Shown in pieces: positions 8,720 to 26,598 of a DNA stretch of 64,000 nt. Origin of the DNA: a virus (taxonomy: Duplodnaviria > Caudoviricetes). The translations under genes were made by a program, and so were the position numbers. The notes beneath the pieces are model-generated. The model was not told the DNA's origin and did not search any database. It worked only from the letters and a program-made list of their open reading frames with translations. Location of the stretch: positions 25,858 to 89,857 of the IMG/VR virus record IMGVR_UViG_3300032218_002851. The stretch is one strand, 5' to 3'. Within the stretch, counting starts at the first letter, position 1. Each line of letters starts with the position of its first letter.

Positions 8720-9667
8720 TTACTTAACCCATTCTTGTGCTTTTTGAGCTACTTTAGCGGGTAATGGAACATATCCATCTTTGACTACAATTTCTTGTCC
8801 AGTCTTTGATAGCACCATCTTCATAAATTCCTTTTCAAGAGGAGCAAGAGATTCATTAGGATGCTTGTTCACATAAACATACAAGTATCGAGCTAAAGGA
8901 TACTTACCGGAAATAGCATTTTCTGGTGTTGGTTCAATAGCCTCTCCACCGTCTTTACGAGAAAGAGGAAGAGCTTTAACGCTTGCAGTCTTATAACCAA
9001 TACCAGAGTACCCAATACCGTTCAATGATTTAGTAACACCTTGTACCACAGAAGCAGATCCGGGCTGCTCATTTACGTTACTCTTATAGTCGCCTTTACA
9101 AAGAGCAAACTCTTTAAAGTAACCGTATGTGCCTGATACTGAATTACGACCAAACATCTGAATGCGCTGATTGCCAAGATCACCAGTTACTCCTAGACCG
9201 CTCCACTGGCTAATGTCGTTATCGTGACCGCAAGCTCTTGTTGCAGAATAGATTGCATCAACTTGTGGGATAGAGATAGATGTGATCGGATTATCCTTAT
9301 GAACAAAGACGGCTAGAGCATCAATTGCTACTGGAATAGCCGTTGGCTTATATCCATACTTGCCTTCAAATGCCTCTACTTCTTCCGACTTCATCATACG
9401 ACTCATCGGACCTAGTGTTGCCGTGCCTTCAGTTAGAGCAGGAGGAGCCGTAGCTGAACCTGCTGCTTGAATCTGTACTGTGACATTAGGATAGAGACGT
9501 TTAAATTCTTCTGCCCAAAGTGACATAAGATTTGCAAGAGTATCAGACCCAACTGATGATAGCGTACCCGATACACCTTCTACTTTTTCGTAGGGAACAA
9601 TCTCCGCATCGATTGCTGATGCGGAGAAAGAGATTGTGGCAAGAATACTAAGTAATAGTTTTTTCAT
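8720..9667 (-). CDS. pstS: phosphate ABC transporter substrate-binding protein PstS
   Basis: Signal peptide; [38 protein letters not shown] motifs. Confidence 0.92.
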
Positions 9668-9676
9668 AAATGCTCC

Positions 9677-11083
9677 TTACCAGAATACTGCCATACGAGT
9701 AACGATTGCTGATGGTTCAGAACCAGCATACTTACCACCTTCTACATCAAGAACCTTGACATAGTTAGTCTGGAAGCGAACGTTCTGTACTGGAAACCAA
9801 TTAACGCCAACTGATAGATTCTTTTCACGACCACCAGTGATTAAATCGCTATTCAAGTCTGTATCCGAGAATCGACCAACAAGTTCCCAAGCACCCCATC
9901 CACCTTTACCAACAAGAGACTGTGGCTTGACTGAATCAAAGATACCTTCTTGAAACTTATATGGACGAGATTCACCAGTTAGGAACCAGCCAGCAGAGAC
10001 ATAATAACCTTGGAAGTAAGGATTGCCAGCAGCAGTATTCACTTGCATACCAAGATATTCACTTTGTAGAGTAAATGGTCCCTGTACTACAACAAACTCA
10101 CCGTTCCAGCGAAGTAGATGATCAGCACCAAATTTACCAGTATCAATTAGGCGAGTAGATGTTTCATTGACTTCCATTCTTTCGCGAAGCTGAACGTTGT
10201 TACCATCCTTAAATCCACGATAAGAGACACCAGAACCTAGATGAAGTACATGACCACCATCATGCCAAGGTGCCCAAGTTACACGTCCAGTAGCAGCATA
10301 ACCATCATTGAAGTCACGAGGATTGGTTTCATCTGCACCCTTATCGGAAATGGTTTCTTGCTGGCGAGTACCAAAGATACCCCCGCTATAGGTAAAGTGA
10401 TCTGTCCAAGTAGTTAGCTTGATACCGGGATTACGTTCACCAACATAGTTAGCAAGAGCATTGACTGGCATTGCACGTTCTACAAATAGACCATTGTTTG
10501 AGCTATTGATTAGATCAAAGCTAAATGGTTCGTGTGACTGACCAATCTTGACACTTGTAGGATGTGCTACTGCATCAATACCGGGAAGCTTACCAACATA
10601 TTCAACATAGGCATCCTTTAGACCTTCAATGCCTTTGTCTGATTCACGGAAATCGTATTCAGCTTTGAACTTCCAATTAGTATTCAGTGTACCAGCAACA
10701 CCAAGTCTTAGACGACGAAACTGACCTGCATCTGCCTGATTGAATCCACCGTCTTTATCAAAGAAGGCAGTATCATAATGAATACGACCAATTGTGCGCC
10801 AAGCAAAATCTCCGGGCTTGTCTTTTAGTTCAAACTTACCGGGAGTAAGACCGGGAGTACCTAGCTGAGCAAGAGACTGTTCGACCTTTTTACCAACTTC
10901 TGCGCCAGCAGCATTGTTAGTTTCTTCATCAGCTTGAGCGGCAGACTTAAGTTCCTCATACGATTTGGCGTCAAGGGTTCCTCTAGTCTTTAGAGTATCC
11001 AGTAGCTGGATCATCGCATCGTTTGCAGCAAATGCTGGCGCGCTTAATAGGCACGACAGTAATACTATTGTGGATTTTCTCAT
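9677..11083 (-). CDS. phosphate-selective porin, OprO/OprP family
   Basis: Signal peptide; FRRLRLGVAG, WKFKAEYDF, LKDAYVEY, GQSHEPFS, GAWELVGRFS, VGVNWF; C-terminal aromatic residue (FW). Confidence 0.88.
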   Translation of the reverse strand: MRKSTIVLLSCLLSAPAFAANDAMIQLLDTLKTRGTLDAKSYEELKSAAQADEETNNAAGAEVGKKVEQSLAQLGTPGLTPGKFELKDKPGDFAWRTIGRIHYDTAFFDKDGGFNQADAGQFRRLRLGVAGTLNTNWKFKAEYDFRESDKGIEGLKDAYVEYVGKLPGIDAVAHPTSVKIGQSHEPFSFDLINSSNNGLFVERAMPVNALANYVGERNPGIKLTTWTDHFTYSGGIFGTRQQETISDKGADETNPRDFNDGYAATGRVTWAPWHDGGHVLHLGSGVSYRGFKDGNNVQLRERMEVNETSTRLIDTGKFGADHLLRWNGEFVVVQGPFTLQSEYLGMQVNTAAGNPYFQGYYVSAGWFLTGESRPYKFQEGIFDSVKPQSLVGKGGWGAWELVGRFSDTDLNSDLITGGREKNLSVGVNWFPVQNVRFQTNYVKVLDVEGGKYAGSEPSAIVTRMAVFW

Positions 11084-14926: not shown

Positions 14927-15208
14927 TTACTTGCGCATAGCCTTTTCAAACATCGAATCTAGACGACTCTTTTGTTCAGCGCAGCAACCCTGAGCAGCAT
15001 CGCCAGCAGCCTGGGCAGACGTAGCAGACTCCAGTGCCCTTCGGGCTAGCTTGTCAGTTTCGTTAACCTTGCTTGTTACTACGTCTAACTTGCCACCTAG
15101 CAATTCTACCTTGCTGCTAAGGACAGTAACGTCCTTTTGAGTAGCATAGCTACAACCACTGAGCGTAATAACACCTGTCAACACAGCGATACTAAACATC
15201 TTATTCAT
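14927..15208 (-). CDS. OprI/Lpp-like outer-membrane lipoprotein (alanine zipper)
   Basis: Lipobox LSGC, coiled coil, C-terminal MFEKAMRK similar to OprI RMLEKASRK; AAGGAGA RBS. Confidence 0.7.
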   Translation of the reverse strand: MNKMFSIAVLTGVITLSGCSYATQKDVTVLSSKVELLGGKLDVVTSKVNETDKLARRALESATSAQAAGDAAQGCCAEQKSRLDSMFEKAMRK

Positions 15209-15263: not shown

Positions 15264-15470
15264 TCAAATATTTTGGTCATCATAAGAGTCAAAAAGAACG
15301 CTTGGATCTTGTAGCCCGATCAATGATCCGCCTGGACCTTTGCGAAGAATACCTTTTTCTAGCCCGTGTTGTTTGATATTTTTCCATTCTTCTTCTAGAA
15401 GGTTGGTGAAATCTTCTTCGGAACCTAAAAATTCTTCAGGCCATGGTTTGTTCTTTATTTTATTTTTCAT
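15264..15470 (-). CDS. hypothetical protein
   Basis: ORF track; start overlaps the end of the GT4 gene. Confidence 0.55.
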   Translation of the reverse strand: MKNKIKNKPWPEEFLGSEEDFTNLLEEEWKNIKQHGLEKGILRKGPGGSLIGLQDPSVLFDSYDDQNI

Positions 15471-16467
15471 TTGCTACACACTCCGCGTGTTCAATAAATT
15501 GTCGCGCTGAATACCGCCAAGTCCAGCGTTCAGCAGTATACCTAACTCGTCGTCTATCTATATTAGCGCATTGGTCTAAGGCTGTTTGCAAGTCCGTGTT
15601 TATCCATCCGTTTATTCCGTTTTCAATTACTTCCAGCGGCCCTGGTTCTGGATATGCAGCTACTGGAGTGCCAGAAGCAATGGCTTCTAGCAGCACAATC
15701 CCAAACGTATCAGATTTACTGGGAAACACAAATGCATCAGCATTGGCATACCATTTAGCCAATGCTGCACCTTCTTGATGACCCGGGAAAATAACATCTG
15801 GATATTTTCGCTTTAACGAAGCGAGATATGGGCCATCACCTACCAAAACTTTTTGGGAATGATTCAATCGACAAAAATCATCCAAGCCTTTTTCCTTGCT
15901 AGCCCTACTCACGCACAAAATATAGCCACCAGTTGTTTGGTCTCTTTTATCCAAGGAAAATAACTTTCCATCCACACCTCTAGTCCATATAGAAGTGTTG
16001 TACATTCCGTGCTGGTGCAAACACTGTGCTAAACCTACAGTAGGACAAAGAATCGCTTGGCTATTTCGATGAAACCAACGAAAGTAAGGATATGTCAAGT
16101 GTGTCGGTATTCCCCAACGACGCTTAATAAGATCAGGAAACAGTGTATGAAAACCTGTGGTAAAAGGTATGGTGTTGCGCTTACAAAATCGCCGAGTCAT
16201 GAGTCCGATAGGACCTTCGGTAGCTATGTGTATGTTCGTGTCGCTATCAACCCTTGATGAAAGTTCATTGGTTACTGCGGATAAATTACAAACATATTCG
16301 ATTTCAGGATATGCTTTTAATATTCTACGTTTGAAAGCCGGCAGATACGGATGAATCACATCACAAGTCACACCTAACTCTGAAAAATAAGGCAAAATAT
16401 TTTGATATGAGCGAATCACGCCATTTACTTGGGGAATCCAGGCATCAGTAGCTATCAATATTTTCAT
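15460..16467 (-). CDS. GT4 glycosyltransferase, Agt-like glycolipid synthase
   Basis: MKILIATDAWIPQVNGV, HIATEGPIG, WTRGVD, FVFPSKSDTFGIVLLEAIASGTPV; ATGA overlap with the plcP-like gene. Confidence 0.85.
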   Translation of the reverse strand: MKILIATDAWIPQVNGVIRSYQNILPYFSELGVTCDVIHPYLPAFKRRILKAYPEIEYVCNLSAVTNELSSRVDSDTNIHIATEGPIGLMTRRFCKRNTIPFTTGFHTLFPDLIKRRWGIPTHLTYPYFRWFHRNSQAILCPTVGLAQCLHQHGMYNTSIWTRGVDGKLFSLDKRDQTTGGYILCVSRASKEKGLDDFCRLNHSQKVLVGDGPYLASLKRKYPDVIFPGHQEGAALAKWYANADAFVFPSKSDTFGIVLLEAIASGTPVAAYPEPGPLEVIENGINGWINTDLQTALDQCANIDRRRVRYTAERWTWRYSARQFIEHAECVANEK

Positions 16468-17213
16468 GAACTCATGCTACTCCATTCGATAATACGCCAG
16501 TTGCCATTAAAATCTTCAACCAGTGCTGTGCAACTTTCCACAAAATCGCCGTCGTTCATGTATTCAACGCCATCAATCTGTTTGATTTCTGCATGGTGAA
16601 TGTGTCCACAAATAATACCGTCATAACCTTTGCGACGACAATACTCAGCCATGTTTTTCTCATAGCTTACAATATGACCTACTGCAGTTTTTACAGCCAA
16701 CTTCAAATACTTGCTTAGACTCCAATAGCCAAATCCAAATTTGCGACGAATCCAGTTGAACTGCGTGTTTAGTCCTAAAATCATTTCATAAAGGTAATCT
16801 CCTAAGTAACTAATCCAACGATGATAATTCAAGATGCCATCAAACATGTCGCCATGAATCAACAAATATCGTCGGCCATTAAGGGCAGTATATTCATAAC
16901 GATTGTGGATCTTGATCAATCCAAAACTTAAGTCTAGTCCTAGAGTGGCTCGTAAAAATTCATCATGATTTCCTACGATATAATGAACTTTGGTTCCTTT
17001 TTTAGCGTGACTTAGAATCTTGCGAACTACATTGGTATGAGTTTGATCCCATCGCCATTTCTTCTGCTGTATCTTCCATCCGTCGATGATATCTCCGATC
17101 AAGAATAGATTTTCTGCTTGATTGTGTTTGAGAAAATCTAAAAGCAATAAGGACTTGCAATCCTTACTGCCTAAGTGCAGATCGCTGATACAAATAGTCT
17201 TATATCTGTTCAT
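16464..17213 (-). CDS. plcP: PlcP-like metallophosphoesterase (phospholipase C; LpxH-related family)
   Basis: ISDLHLG, LIGDIIDGW, GNHDEFLR, IHGD, ICGHIH, NDGDFVESCTALVE; GNHD rather than the GNRD of canonical LpxH; adjacent GT4 gene. Confidence 0.75.
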   Translation of the reverse strand: MNRYKTICISDLHLGSKDCKSLLLLDFLKHNQAENLFLIGDIIDGWKIQQKKWRWDQTHTNVVRKILSHAKKGTKVHYIVGNHDEFLRATLGLDLSFGLIKIHNRYEYTALNGRRYLLIHGDMFDGILNYHRWISYLGDYLYEMILGLNTQFNWIRRKFGFGYWSLSKYLKLAVKTAVGHIVSYEKNMAEYCRRKGYDGIICGHIHHAEIKQIDGVEYMNDGDFVESCTALVEDFNGNWRIIEWSSMSS

Positions 17214-17237: not shown

Positions 17238-17417
17238 TCATTCTGTATCTTCCTCTATTACAACGTAGTGTTTGCCAATATGAATAAAACCAGCATAGGT
17301 TACTGCATTTTTTAGTGCCTGTGCTTCTCCACAAGCCTCAGCTATGCTAAGAAAAATCATAATCAGCACACCTAATGCTAAGCCAAGTAACACACTGTGC
17401 TTATCAAATTTAAACAT
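17238..17417 (-). CDS. small membrane protein
   Basis: One hydrophobic segment; start moved to MFKFDKHS. Confidence 0.55.
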   Translation of the reverse strand: MFKFDKHSVLLGLALGVLIMIFLSIAEACGEAQALKNAVTYAGFIHIGKHYVVIEEDTE

Positions 17418-17430
17418 TTCTCTGTCTGCT

Positions 17431-17598
17431 TTAGCTAATATTGTTATGTTCAGTGTTGCTATTTGATTCTTCACTTTCGTCTACAAGATCAAATACCCAA
17501 TTGATCGGAATATTTAAATTTTTCGCAATATCGCGAATTTTAACACCAGCTTGATATGCGCACACAACTTCGATATATAAATCAGACATATTGCTCAT
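17431..17598 (-). CDS. small HTH-like hypothetical protein
   Basis: GVKIRDIAKNLNIPINWV resembles a helix-turn-helix. Confidence 0.55.
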   Translation of the reverse strand: MSNMSDLYIEVVCAYQAGVKIRDIAKNLNIPINWVFDLVDESEESNSNTEHNNIS

Positions 17599-17815
17599 AG
17601 TTTTGATTCTCGTTAGGTTCAAACATAGTCGGAATTGAAGGCATTGTCATCCAATGCGTAATATCTAATGGTTTGTTATATTGATTATAAAAGGCAAAAG
17701 GCGTAACTCCCTTTACATCTCGGTATTGGAACCAAGCGATTTCAATAAATTCTCCATTGAACACCAAAAAATAACCGTTGAAGGTAGGTAGTCGATCTCT
17801 TACCTTAATCCACAT
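17582..17815 (-). CDS. DUF551-like protein
   Basis: MWIKVRDRLP...ITHWMTMP pattern. Confidence 0.75.
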   Translation of the reverse strand: MWIKVRDRLPTFNGYFLVFNGEFIEIAWFQYRDVKGVTPFAFYNQYNKPLDITHWMTMPSIPTMFEPNENQNYEQYV

Positions 17816-19480: not shown

Positions 19481-19846
19481 ATGGAAAATATTTTAGGTGT
19501 CATTTTTTCGTTGGCAATATTATTGTTAGCTTATATTTTGTATAGCTTTATTGCCAATCGTCTAACACAAGAACAATCAATCACCACACCAACAGAATCT
19601 GTAGTAACAGATGAGATACTTGAAGTATCTCAGCTTGAGACTGAAGTAAAACCAGCAGAAGAAGTTGTAGCTGAGTCTGTTGTAGAGAAACCCAAAGAAA
19701 TTCTAGTTGTAAAGGCTGCCAAGCCTAAGAAGACTAAGGTAATTGAACCTAAGAAGGAAAAAACTACCAAGACTTCCAAAGCACCTGTCACTAAAGCAAA
19801 ACAAACAGCCAATGCTAAAAGCAAAAAGAAATCAGACAATACCTAA
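19481..19846 (+). CDS. membrane-anchored protein with acidic then Lys-rich tail
   Basis: AGGAGA RBS before ATG 19481; N-terminal TM segment; E-rich then K-rich low-complexity region. Confidence 0.7.
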   Translation: MENILGVIFSLAILLLAYILYSFIANRLTQEQSITTPTESVVTDEILEVSQLETEVKPAEEVVAESVVEKPKEILVVKAAKPKKTKVIEPKKEKTTKTSKAPVTKAKQTANAKSKKKSDNT

Positions 19847-20863
19847 TTGTTCTGCACGCCTAGCTAGTTCTGCACTAGCTAGGTTCTTGCACTTACTTTC
19901 GGCTTGAATGTCAAACTCTGGCAAAAAACTCAAAGCCCAATCGTTTACTGCAGTGTTCCAATAGAAATCTGAATGCGCTCGCAGTTTGCTTTTACTAAAG
20001 CCATTGTTTAACAGAATTGTGTGGTCAGGCATCACATTTGTCTCATGATTTACCAGTACATCTTCACGACTTACGCTGTAATGCATGGCAGGACGTACAC
20101 CACGCCAGCTGTCTAGCACACGCTTAACTCGATTGTCATCGGGTTGAATGTATTCACCTTCTCGAATCCAATTATGATGAATATCTAGCACAATAGGCAA
20201 TAGATCAGACAGTGACAAACATTCTTCTAGTCCGTGACTCATTTCTTCATTTTCAATAGTGATGCAGTTGCGAGCCTCGGGCGAGAGTCTGGCATATGCT
20301 GTGCGAATACCTTCAGCACCTGCTCGGCCTGCAATATGCACGTTGATCTTAAAGTCTTGAAATGTCTTGCCATAGCCCATCCACCGAACCATGTTAGCGT
20401 GATATTCAAAATCTTCGATGCTGCGTTCTACAATTGCTGGTGTTTCGGATGCCAGCACTACAAATTGTCCAGGGTGAAAACTAAGACGTACATCATTAAC
20501 GCGAGCGATCTCACCAATTTCAGCAAAACCATGCTCACAATGAGCAATTACATCTGCACGTTGCCAGAAATATCGCCAGTCTGGATGCGTGTACATTGGC
20601 AGAAGATCACTGCCGATACGCATCATACGAAGATGCGACGGATTCTCGCCGACTAGTTTTACTAGCTTAAGAGTAACCGTGATATTTTCGGTCATTAAAT
20701 TCCATAGCTTTTGTTCAGCAATGTCTCGTTTTTGGCGAGACAACCAAGCTACGGTAGTTGAGCCAGTATTCAGTCCTTCCTTAGATTGAATACCTTTTTT
20801 AGGATGGCGTTCTACAAATTTGCAGCAGAAGCCGATTCGAGGAATGCGTTTTAGTGTAGTCAT
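19832..20863 (-). CDS. uvsE: UV damage endonuclease UvsE/UVDE
   Basis: RIGFCCK, MMRIGSDLLP, RLSFHPGQF, INVHIAG, ITIENEE, LDIHH, RPAMHYS, RAHSD motifs. Confidence 0.92.
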   Translation of the reverse strand: MTTLKRIPRIGFCCKFVERHPKKGIQSKEGLNTGSTTVAWLSRQKRDIAEQKLWNLMTENITVTLKLVKLVGENPSHLRMMRIGSDLLPMYTHPDWRYFWQRADVIAHCEHGFAEIGEIARVNDVRLSFHPGQFVVLASETPAIVERSIEDFEYHANMVRWMGYGKTFQDFKINVHIAGRAGAEGIRTAYARLSPEARNCITIENEEMSHGLEECLSLSDLLPIVLDIHHNWIREGEYIQPDDNRVKRVLDSWRGVRPAMHYSVSREDVLVNHETNVMPDHTILLNNGFSKSKLRAHSDFYWNTAVNDWALSFLPEFDIQAESKCKNLASAELARRAEQLGIV

Positions 20864-24384: not shown

Positions 24385-24575
24385 TTATTTTTCTTAGGTT
24401 TAAAATTTTTCCCTGAATCCCACACATCAATGTATGAACCTTTTGGCAGGTCAGGTTCTTGCAATGCTCCCATTGCTTGTATCATTGCTTTGACTGGTTT
24501 GTAACGCTGGGTAGTTAAAACTTTATTATCGCTAGGTTTAATCTGTTTATTATTGTCAAAATCTTTAAATCTCAT
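24378..24575 (-). CDS. small hypothetical protein
   Basis: ORF track; ATGA overlap with the cyclase; MRFKDF N-terminal motif. Confidence 0.6.
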   Translation of the reverse strand: MRFKDFDNNKQIKPSDNKVLTTQRYKPVKAMIQAMGALQEPDLPKGSYIDVWDSGKNFKPKKNNQ

Positions 24576-25591
24576 TTACTTGTTGCCCTATACGTTCCGT
24601 CCCAATCTTCTGGTTTACCTTCTTCCATACGTTCAATCATCGCTTCATAATACTTCTTCATTTCTTTATTTGTTTTAGAAAGCTTCTTCGCTATATTGAT
24701 AGCTTCAGCCCAGCTACCTGCATAGTATTCTGAAAGGAATTTCTCTTGCATTGGTTCTTCCCCAAGAGTATATATCTTAACTCCCAACTTCTTACCTTTG
24801 ACGGCAATACAATCTAACTCTACTACTTTGAATTCGTCTTTGACTTGTTCCGCTGTAATTGGCCCCAATATAATTCGAACTCCATACGGTTTGGATTGAC
24901 CTTCCAACCTTGAAGCAAGATTGACAGAATCGCCGAGACAGGTATAATCAAAACGCTGAACGCTACCCATATTGCCAACGACAACAGTCCCAGTGTTAAT
25001 ACCCAAACCCATTCCAAAAGCAGGAATACCTTCAGGCTCAATTTGTCGATTAAATTCATCAAGACTCTCCATCATTTGTATTGCTGTTCTTACTGCATTT
25101 TTGGCGTGTTGTGGATCGTCTAAAGGAGCATTCCAAAATGCCATCTGAGCGTCACCAATATACTTGTCAAGCGTACCATTGTTCTCAATAATCTTCTCTG
25201 TCATCGCCGTCATATATCGATTCATAATAGAGGTTAGACCTTGAACGTCTGCGCCATAATGCTCAGAGATCGCAGTAAACCCACGAACGTCTGTAAACAT
25301 AATAGACAATTCTTTAGATTCACCACCGAGCTTCAATAGATCTGGATTCTTCTGTAGTTTCTCTACTAGTGCTGGACTTAAATATGTACCAAACTGCTTC
25401 TTTATTTGCAGTTTTTGATTCAATTCGGTTATAAAACGCACAATATTGATATGCAAAGACACCAATATCACCGCAATGGTAGGAAGTGTAATATCTAACA
25501 GCATTCGGTATTCGTGATATGCATATCTAGACCCACTGTATAACGCTGCCACGAACAGTACAGGCAATATATAACTCAAATGCTTGTTCAT
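24572..25591 (-). CDS. class III adenylate cyclase with two N-terminal TM helices
   Basis: MFTDVRGFT, LDKYIGDAQMAFW, FDYTCLGDSVNLASRLE; start moved to ATG 25591 (GGAGG RBS, ATGA overlap). Confidence 0.9.
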   Translation of the reverse strand: MNKHLSYILPVLFVAALYSGSRYAYHEYRMLLDITLPTIAVILVSLHINIVRFITELNQKLQIKKQFGTYLSPALVEKLQKNPDLLKLGGESKELSIMFTDVRGFTAISEHYGADVQGLTSIMNRYMTAMTEKIIENNGTLDKYIGDAQMAFWNAPLDDPQHAKNAVRTAIQMMESLDEFNRQIEPEGIPAFGMGLGINTGTVVVGNMGSVQRFDYTCLGDSVNLASRLEGQSKPYGVRIILGPITAEQVKDEFKVVELDCIAVKGKKLGVKIYTLGEEPMQEKFLSEYYAGSWAEAINIAKKLSKTNKEMKKYYEAMIERMEEGKPEDWDGTYRATSK

Positions 25592-26598
25592 CGACGCCTC
25601 CATACTGCAAAAAATACTAACAACAGTCCCATAACTAGCATGGCTAGTATTTCTGCACCATCTGCCCAATCAGGACGTTTTATATTAGATCCTGCGATCA
25701 TGGTAGAAATCACAGCAGCTTGTAAATCCTGTGGCCATACACTACCTACTGCTGTTGGAACTGGATTGGATATGCCAGCCGCACTAACGCCTACAATTAC
25801 AACTGCACCTTCAAAGTTTTCTAATAAGTCAACTGCTGATACAGATTGAGCACGCTGACTCCAGTCGATCCATACACGCCCTAAGTTGTCAGTAGCTATT
25901 GGACCAAACTTAGGTATACGCATTTTTTCCACGCCAAGTGCATTTAGTTTAACTTGGAAGGTAGTATCGCCGGCAGCAGCACGTAGAGCTTCCATTGCTA
26001 ATGAAGGATATAGTTTCTTATCTACGGTGGCAATCAATGGTGCTCTACGAACAACGCCATCAACTTCTGGTAATGTATTAACGGTTCCTACACCGTATGC
26101 TCGATCTTCTAATAAGGATACATTAGATATGAGTCCTGGATATTCTATTATGCGATCAAGAAACTCTGGCCCCATCACTGCGCTACCCGGCACATGCGCT
26201 TTGTTTTTGCTTTTTTCTGCGGGCATGTTAGCAAGCACCACTGGATTTTCATCTAGTACAGCAGCTAACGCTTTATCGCCGCCTTGACGATCTGTTTCAG
26301 GCATCATAACGTCCCATACTACTAATCCAGCTTTTCGGGCGTAGAGATCGCTGATTAGATCGGCGTATATTTCTCGATTAAAAGGCCACTGTCCATATTT
26401 GTCCAGTGTTGCTTCGTCTATGTTGATTGTGAATATATTTGTTGGTTTAGAGGGTTCACTGGTTATCAATGTGTCAAAATAACGCAGTCTTACTGATTCA
26501 ACAAAGTTTGGATCTGCGATTCTAACTGATAATACTATGCCTAGTGTTGCTAGTGCTAGCCAAGGACTTACTAAAATTTTCAATAGTATTTTTTTCAT
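25588..26598 (-). CDS. CHASE2 periplasmic sensor protein (cyclase domain encoded separately)
   Basis: INIDEATLDKYGQWPFNR, EVDGVVRRAPL, LYPSLAMEALR, GRVWIDW, PTAVG motifs; TM helices at both ends. Confidence 0.88.
   Translation of the reverse strand: MKKILLKILVSPWLALATLGIVLSVRIADPNFVESVRLRYFDTLITSEPSKPTNIFTINIDEATLDKYGQWPFNREIYADLISDLYARKAGLVVWDVMMPETDRQGGDKALAAVLDENPVVLANMPAEKSKNKAHVPGSAVMGPEFLDRIIEYPGLISNVSLLEDRAYGVGTVNTLPEVDGVVRRAPLIATVDKKLYPSLAMEALRAAAGDTTFQVKLNALGVEKMRIPKFGPIATDNLGRVWIDWSQRAQSVSAVDLLENFEGAVVIVGVSAAGISNPVPTAVGSVWPQDLQAAVISTMIAGSNIKRPDWADGAEILAMLVMGLLLVFFAVWRRR

Follow-up and report, generated by a model that had tools for sequence, protein, structure and literature searches.

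Among bacteria, the PlcP-Agt pathway of lipid renovation is known from Sinorhizobium meliloti (SMc00171), Phaeobacter sp. MED193, SAR11 HTCC7211 (PlcP and the glycosyltransferase GTcp), Agrobacterium (the Agt Atu2297), Pseudomonas aeruginosa and Methylosinus trichosporium OB3b (PMC4796936, PMC8231724, PMC9239053). In the experimentally characterised arrangement plcP comes first and is followed by a gene for a glycosyltransferase of family GT4 (PMC9239053, PMC8231724, PMC4796936). Here we describe a pair of this kind, plcP-agt, in a virus of the Caudoviricetes (Duplodnaviria). The DNA analysed, called the window below, is 64,000 nucleotides long (positions 25,858 to 89,857 of IMG/VR record IMGVR_UViG_3300032218_002851) and forms the final 64 kb of this 89,857-bp virus record, whose CheckV completeness of 25% implies a full genome of several hundred kb, roughly 360 kb. 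In our judgement the pair is likely to be a phage copy of the bacterial PlcP-Agt pathway, with the freeing of lipid phosphorus as its most likely purpose. The phage probably remodels the membrane of its host, and it may draw phosphorus from it.

At this locus we observe both protein families, with their residues intact and their genes coupled, in a form that is conserved among viruses and recurs in hundreds of contigs. The genes and their overlap are as follows.

16464..17213, minus strand: plcP, a PlcP-family metallophosphoesterase (LpxH-like fold) of 249 aa, predicted to act as a phospholipase C on glycerophospholipids (Pfam Metallophos, tree, metal ligands)
15460..16467, minus strand: agt, a GT4 glycosyltransferase (GT-B, retaining) of the plcP-linked Agt/GTcp group, 335 aa, predicted diacylglycerol glycosyltransferase (Pfam, GTcp residues)
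16464..16467, minus strand: ATGA, in which the stop of plcP overlaps the start of agt (translational coupling; read from the sequence)

Pfam matches the 249-aa protein to Metallophos (E = 1.2e-13) and the 335-aa protein to both Glycos_transf_1 (E = 4e-20) and Glyco_transf_4 (E = 5e-11). The plcP product contains the motifs GDIIDGW, GNHDEFLR and ESCTALVE, and the N-terminal start of the agt product reads ATDAWIPQVNGV; the opening residues of this second protein, the 335-aa glycosyltransferase, are MKILIATDAWIPQVNGV. The open reading frames (ORFs), the motifs and the ATGA overlap described in the initial annotation of this DNA were thus all borne out when the window was read. As agt is translationally coupled to plcP, both proteins would be made together, and the same 4-base overlap is present in L005, the nearest DNA relative.

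The first protein falls in the PlcP family and is predicted from its sequence to be a phospholipase C. Its residues were assessed by the ligands of the metal site and by conservation across the family. The ligands D11, H13, D41, N82, H120, H204 and H206, together with H83 of the GNHD motif, are invariant in all 48 viral and bacterial homologues aligned, and so are many residues of the cap, including Y142, N149, N153, R156, S165, K171 and K175. A complete metal site and a conserved cap region are thus found in the viral members as they are in bacterial PlcP. That ligands and cap residues are both invariant across viral and bacterial homologues argues for a common substrate, so that the phage enzyme would act on the substrate of its bacterial counterparts. 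In a scan of species-representative genomes, 599 of 600 candidate stretches contained relatives. The 80 best of these are 46–55% identical to the phage protein and come from Pseudomonas, Pelagibacteraceae (SAR11), Caulobacter, Rhizobiales, Rhodospirillales, Burkholderiales and others, lineages whose PlcP has been investigated (PMC9239053); the SAR11 PlcP orthologue is 50% identical over 245 residues. A GT4 homologous to the phage glycosyltransferase lies directly after plcP in 39 of these 80 bacterial loci and inside the flank in 51. The phage locus therefore has in common with the bacterial lipid-renovation operon both families, the order plcP then GT4, and their close coupling. To any bacterial copy sampled, identity is at most 55% for PlcP and at most 42% for the glycosyltransferase.

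The assignment of the second protein as a diacylglycerol glycosyltransferase of the Agt/GTcp group is well supported as a prediction. It is 37–42% identical over its full length to bacterial glycosyltransferases encoded after plcP, those of SAR11 and Pseudomonas included. In SAR11 GTcp, activity is lost on mutation of the catalytic dyad His104 and Asp256, of which the Asp stands where other GT4 enzymes usually have Glu; essential residues also include Gly16, Gly82, Gly85, Arg190, Lys195, Thr257, Phe258, Gly259 and Glu264 in the donor site, and Thr162, Arg163 and Trp320 in contact with diacylglycerol (PMC8231724). All 14 of these residues are kept in the phage protein (G16, G85, G88, H107, T162, R163, R188, K193, D253, T254, F255, G256, E261 and W317), as read from an alignment that contained a SAR11 row with exactly the published GTcp numbering. 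The motif FPSxTDTFG appears as FPSKSDTFG. An AlphaFold (AF2) model with a predicted local distance difference test (pLDDT) score of 94.5 has a GT-B fold, and its top matches in the PDB are BshA and MshA. Both enzyme assignments made in the initial annotation therefore stand: the phosphoesterase groups with plcP genes that precede agt in relatives from Pseudomonas, SAR11, Caulobacter and Rhizobiales, and its partner keeps every residue that is essential in GTcp. A reading as a defence system was rejected. PADLOC gave no hit for the two proteins or their small neighbours, and a Pfam GT4-conflict match to the glycosyltransferase was below threshold and covered just a 50-residue nucleotide-sugar motif.

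The initial annotation had proposed surveying phage databases for the pair, and in such a survey plcP with a glycosyltransferase proved widespread in phage contigs. Within IMG/VR, at least 521 contigs encode a PlcP relative; the best 80 of these are 59–63% identical to the phage PlcP, a level that no bacterial copy reaches. Many viral loci of this set have further genes in common with this phage, including that for ribonucleotide reductase (RNR) at 68–82% identity. When PlcP sequences were placed in a tree with LpxH as outgroup, the window sequence formed one clade with 81 IMG/VR and 10 metagenomic sequences and no bacterial member. Support for this virus-only clade was 98 in FastTree and 98 by SH-aLRT under a mixture model in IQ-TREE, where the ten best Burkholderiales hits had also been taken in. 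Within it, the window PlcP belongs with L005 and P0003-P0014 to a subclade of 11 members that has support 100. The glycosyltransferase tree separates all 26 bacterial Agts (support 99) from all the sequences of viral and metagenomic origin, and places the window protein beside L005 and P0122-P0128, mirroring the PlcP tree. The two trees match, and therefore the pair has been inherited together within phages. The nearest PlcPs of the subclade and the nearest glycosyltransferase relatives are on contigs of matching sizes (1,944 to 64,164 bp), which suggests that they share contigs.

Both genes are under purifying selection in this virus-specific lineage: the ratio of nonsynonymous to synonymous substitution rates (dN/dS) inside the viral clade is 0.03–0.11 for plcP and 0.08–0.25 for the glycosyltransferase gene. 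A viral-type plcP was not found at a threshold of 1e-90 in about 1,200 sampled proteobacterial genomes; 401 Burkholderiales genomes held 200 homologues, the most similar of them 55% identical, and 401 alphaproteobacterial and 400 gammaproteobacterial genomes had none better than 1e-90. The closest 'bacterial' PlcP, at 55% identity, comes from a 348,090-bp contig (L089, JBCCBQ010000005.1) in a Pseudomonadota metagenome-assembled genome; this contig may be bacterial or a large phage binned with bacteria. It groups next to the viral clade, together with phage Mosig.

What accompanies plcP differs among phages. A GT4 gene lies just downstream on the same strand in 28–34 of the 82 viral loci, while in 36 of the 82 plcP is followed by a gene for a 239-aa GT2/GT21-like glycosyltransferase (L020:6904-7620, plus strand, where Glycos_transf_2 matches at E = 3e-18, and 35 others), of which none was seen in the 80 bacterial loci sampled. 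This GT2 may be an alternative glycolipid synthase, and the presence of two unrelated glycosyltransferases at one position after plcP fits glycosylation of the diacylglycerol product. Bacteria, too, differ in what accompanies plcP: the partner can be a patatin-like phospholipase in Campylobacterota or a GT28 of the MGDG-synthase type in some Burkholderiales (L104:4734-5489, L106:1394-2614). Other neighbours in the related viral loci are PhoH, PstS, a fatty-acid desaturase, Hsp20, NifU and curlin repeats. Among isolated phages, Pelagibacter phage Mosig has a PlcP homologue of 50% identity (L001:8001-8738) that lies divergently beside pstS and has no glycosyltransferase partner, and Synechococcus phage S-SRM01 has one of 37% identity (L002:4995-5699). 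Both are annotated as UDP-2,3-diacylglucosamine hydrolase/diphosphatase (LpxH), which is probably wrong.

Two further genes of the window, which lie outside the operon of the pair, give it a phosphate setting.

9677..11083, minus strand: OprO/P-type phosphate-selective porin (Pfam Porin_O_P, E = 8.7e-66)
8720..9667, minus strand: PstS-type phosphate-binding protein (Pfam PBP_like_2, E = 7.6e-36)

They lie 4.4 kb from plcP-agt on the same strand (the initial annotation had given the distance as 4 kb); the phosphate theme recurs in the PhoH and PstS of related loci and in the pstS beside the Mosig homologue. We propose the following mechanism. With no signal peptide, a two-metal site and an LpxH-like cap, PlcP most likely sits on the cytoplasmic membrane of the host, at its inner face, where it would hydrolyse glycerophospholipids (phosphatidylethanolamine, phosphatidylglycerol and phosphatidylcholine) to diacylglycerol and a phosphorylated head group. 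Agt would move glucose or glucuronic acid from a UDP-sugar onto the diacylglycerol, and the resulting phosphorus-free glycolipids would keep the bilayer intact. The freed lipid phosphorus would then enter nucleotide synthesis for the genome of about 360 kb, with the phage's own porin and PstS alongside; we regard this as the most likely purpose. A rough estimate puts the need of one genome of this size, several hundred kb, close to a million phosphorus atoms, and the content of a small cell at a few million phospholipids, so that the phospholipid phosphorus of one small cell would roughly equal that of a few such genomes. A role in phosphorus supply is consistent with the porin and pstS close by, as well as with the size of the genome. 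The known phosphate-related auxiliary metabolic genes of phages, such as pstS and phoH of cyanophages and pelagiphages, are similarly host-derived, carried by large aquatic phages and concerned with phosphorus supply; whereas they raise uptake from outside, plcP-agt would tap an internal pool, the membrane lipids.

Several points weigh against the proposal that the pair renovates lipids for phosphorus. PlcP yields phosphorylated head groups rather than orthophosphate, so a further phosphatase is needed, and no phage phosphatase for head groups was identified in this analysis. Substrates, products and purpose in the infected cell are deduced from the bacterial pathway, and the PlcP comparisons used orthologues from the same genus or family as the experimentally characterised proteins, in place of those proteins themselves. 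In the glycosyltransferase, the first UDP-sugar motif of bacterial Agt/GTcp, GRVAxEKN, has diverged to SRASKEKG, which retains the Arg, Glu and Lys of the motif but departs from it at three further positions. Furthermore, while the bacterial operons are induced by phosphate starvation, no Pho box with the E. coli-type consensus, which may not be that of the host, was detected near plcP. Two scans of the whole window gave 6 matches against 8.7 expected and 5 against 5.1 expected; as these are not above chance, phosphate-dependent control is not supported here. A degenerate sequence resembling a Pho box, CTGTCAC-N15-CTGTACA with heptamers 22 bp apart, lies at 11162-11134 on the minus strand, about 50–80 bp upstream of the genes for the porin and PstS. 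It is rejected under a 3-mismatch criterion and does not exceed chance expectation. Of the earlier suggestion that the host membrane serves this phage as a phosphate source for DNA synthesis, the part concerning neighbouring genes holds, since pstS and the porin are nearby. That the phosphate feeds DNA synthesis is something we infer, and the link to these genes is one of proximity, with no shared operon or detected Pho box.

The same chemistry might serve another purpose: by exchanging phospholipids for glycolipids the phage could alter the cell envelope, blocking superinfection, stabilising the membrane while a very large phage completes a long infection, or changing susceptibility to grazers or antimicrobial peptides. 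Lipid remodelling has been tied, in published reports, to phage attachment, grazing and polymyxin tolerance (PMC9804370, PMC9938194, PMC9457565), although the inner-membrane lipids in question are not directly exposed to incoming phages. The use of a GT2 with plcP in related phages suggests selection on the glycolipid product and would suit an envelope function, as would the lack of a detected Pho box at this locus; against this, plcP stands amid phosphate-acquisition genes both here and in Mosig, and PhoH and PstS are found near it in related loci. A gene for an outer-membrane lipoprotein of the Lpp/OprI type just downstream of the pair also speaks for the envelope. We consider this purpose unlikely overall, although it deserves to be kept in mind. 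The lipoprotein gene itself (14927-15208, minus strand) lies about 250 bp downstream of agt and encodes 93 aa with a signal peptide and an LSGC lipobox; Pfam matches it to Alanine_zipper (major outer-membrane lipoprotein, Lpp/OprI type; E = 9.6e-9). Being phage-encoded, it could have a role in superinfection exclusion or envelope tethering.

Returning to lipid renovation, it presupposes that the phosphoesterase is not LpxH, the UDP-2,3-diacylglucosamine diphosphatase of the lipid A pathway. If it were an LpxH-type hydrolase, the glycosyltransferase might act on lipopolysaccharide, capsule or another glycan, and the effect of the pair would be a modified lipid A or cell surface. O-antigen is a frequent target of phage glycosyltransferases (PMC7029224), and automatic annotation labels the homologues LpxH. 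The closest solved structures are likewise those of LpxH (PDB 5K8K, 5B49, 6PH9), which have a calcineurin-like core and a helical lipid-binding cap: an AlphaFold (AF2) model of the phage PlcP (pLDDT 85) shows such a core with a helical cap inserted at residues 121-195, and the PDB entries that it resembles most are complexes of LpxH with lipid X, with a TM score of about 0.56 and 16–23% identity. On this model the phage protein appears to have the lipid-handling architecture of LpxH, yet to belong to a different family with a different predicted substrate. Its scores against the LpxH equivalog models are far under the cut-offs (51.4 bits for NF003743, cut-off 134; 38.5 bits for TIGR01854, cut-off 190.35), and it obtains 36.9 bits in the genome search. 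PDB LpxH sequences match at E of about 1e-4 over the N-terminal half only, and have GNRD where the phage protein has GNHD. Since GNHDE was among the patterns by which the loci were searched for, counts of GNHD among the fetched loci are partly circular; the GNRD side, read from the PDB chains and from LpxH extracted from four of five named bacterial genomes, is independent of that pattern. Each of these five genomes holds a homologue of the phage PlcP and a true LpxH scoring 239–341 bits, and in four of the five the LpxH model also picks up the PlcP-type paralogue, at 39–51 bits and at a separate locus. The initial annotation had named a phylogeny with PlcP and LpxH references as a check on its reading, and in our trees LpxH is a distant, long-branch outgroup to both phage and bacterial PlcP. 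Altogether, the low scores, the GNHD motif and the coexistence of a true LpxH with this paralogue led us to reject the identity as LpxH. The diacylglycerol-contact residues kept in the glycosyltransferase also point away from a surface glycan, and this alternative, already largely refuted, is very improbable.

That the genes come from the host, as a chimeric assembly, a recent passenger or a decaying copy without a role in infection, is very improbable: while the contig is an uncultured metagenomic fragment and some IMG/VR records may contain host DNA, each contig end is more than 15 kb away from the pair, phage genes lie on either side of it, its GC content (0.38 for plcP, 0.42 for the glycosyltransferase gene) matches that of the phage genome (0.405), its nearest relatives are viral contigs with further genes in common with this phage, its clade is virus-only, with purifying selection acting on it, and the top bacterial PlcP reaches 55% identity. 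The viral nature of the surroundings is seen in genes for RNR, a DnaB-type helicase and a primase, in tail-protein matches, and in several strong matches to phage-only PHROG families, among them phrog_35576 (3.7e-101) and phrog_11903 (1.5e-62), the latter 2.6 kb from the pair. The window also encodes a protein with a class III adenylate/guanylate cyclase domain (24572-25669, minus strand; E = 3e-22) and a UvdE UV-damage endonuclease (19832-20863, minus strand; E = 1.6e-39). Closer to plcP-agt, the small flanking ORFs at 15264-15470, 17238-17474 and 17582-17815 gave no family matches, and the related loci held nothing corresponding to those of sufficient length for the 50-aa ORF screen. Around the pair, patterns of promoters and terminators did not exceed those in shuffled sequences.

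Both enzymes are new members of known families, in a pathway already known in bacteria. No description of a phage plcP or of the plcP-agt pair was found in the literature searched, which agrees with the earlier statement that the pair had not been characterised in a phage, although homologues had already been deposited as LpxH (Mosig and S-SRM01). The sole literature trace found was "lpxH" as a table entry in a Lake Baikal viral metatranscriptome; a pelagimyophage survey makes no mention of lpxH. We are evenly divided on the wider proposition that, among very large aquatic phages, renovation of membrane lipids is a widespread auxiliary function of long standing, carried out by a virus-specific PlcP with a GT4 or GT2, drawing on the membrane as an internal phosphorus store to replicate genomes of several hundred kilobases, and overlooked under the name lpxH. 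In lakes and oceans, phosphorus often limits bacteria as well as the phages that infect them, and the known phosphate responses of phages (pstS, phoH and phoA) concern uptake from outside the cell. If the proposition is true, an internal source of phosphorus would be added to these responses, the stoichiometry of virocells and lipid biomarkers would have to be read differently, and the "lpxH" entries of viral gene surveys would be misassigned.

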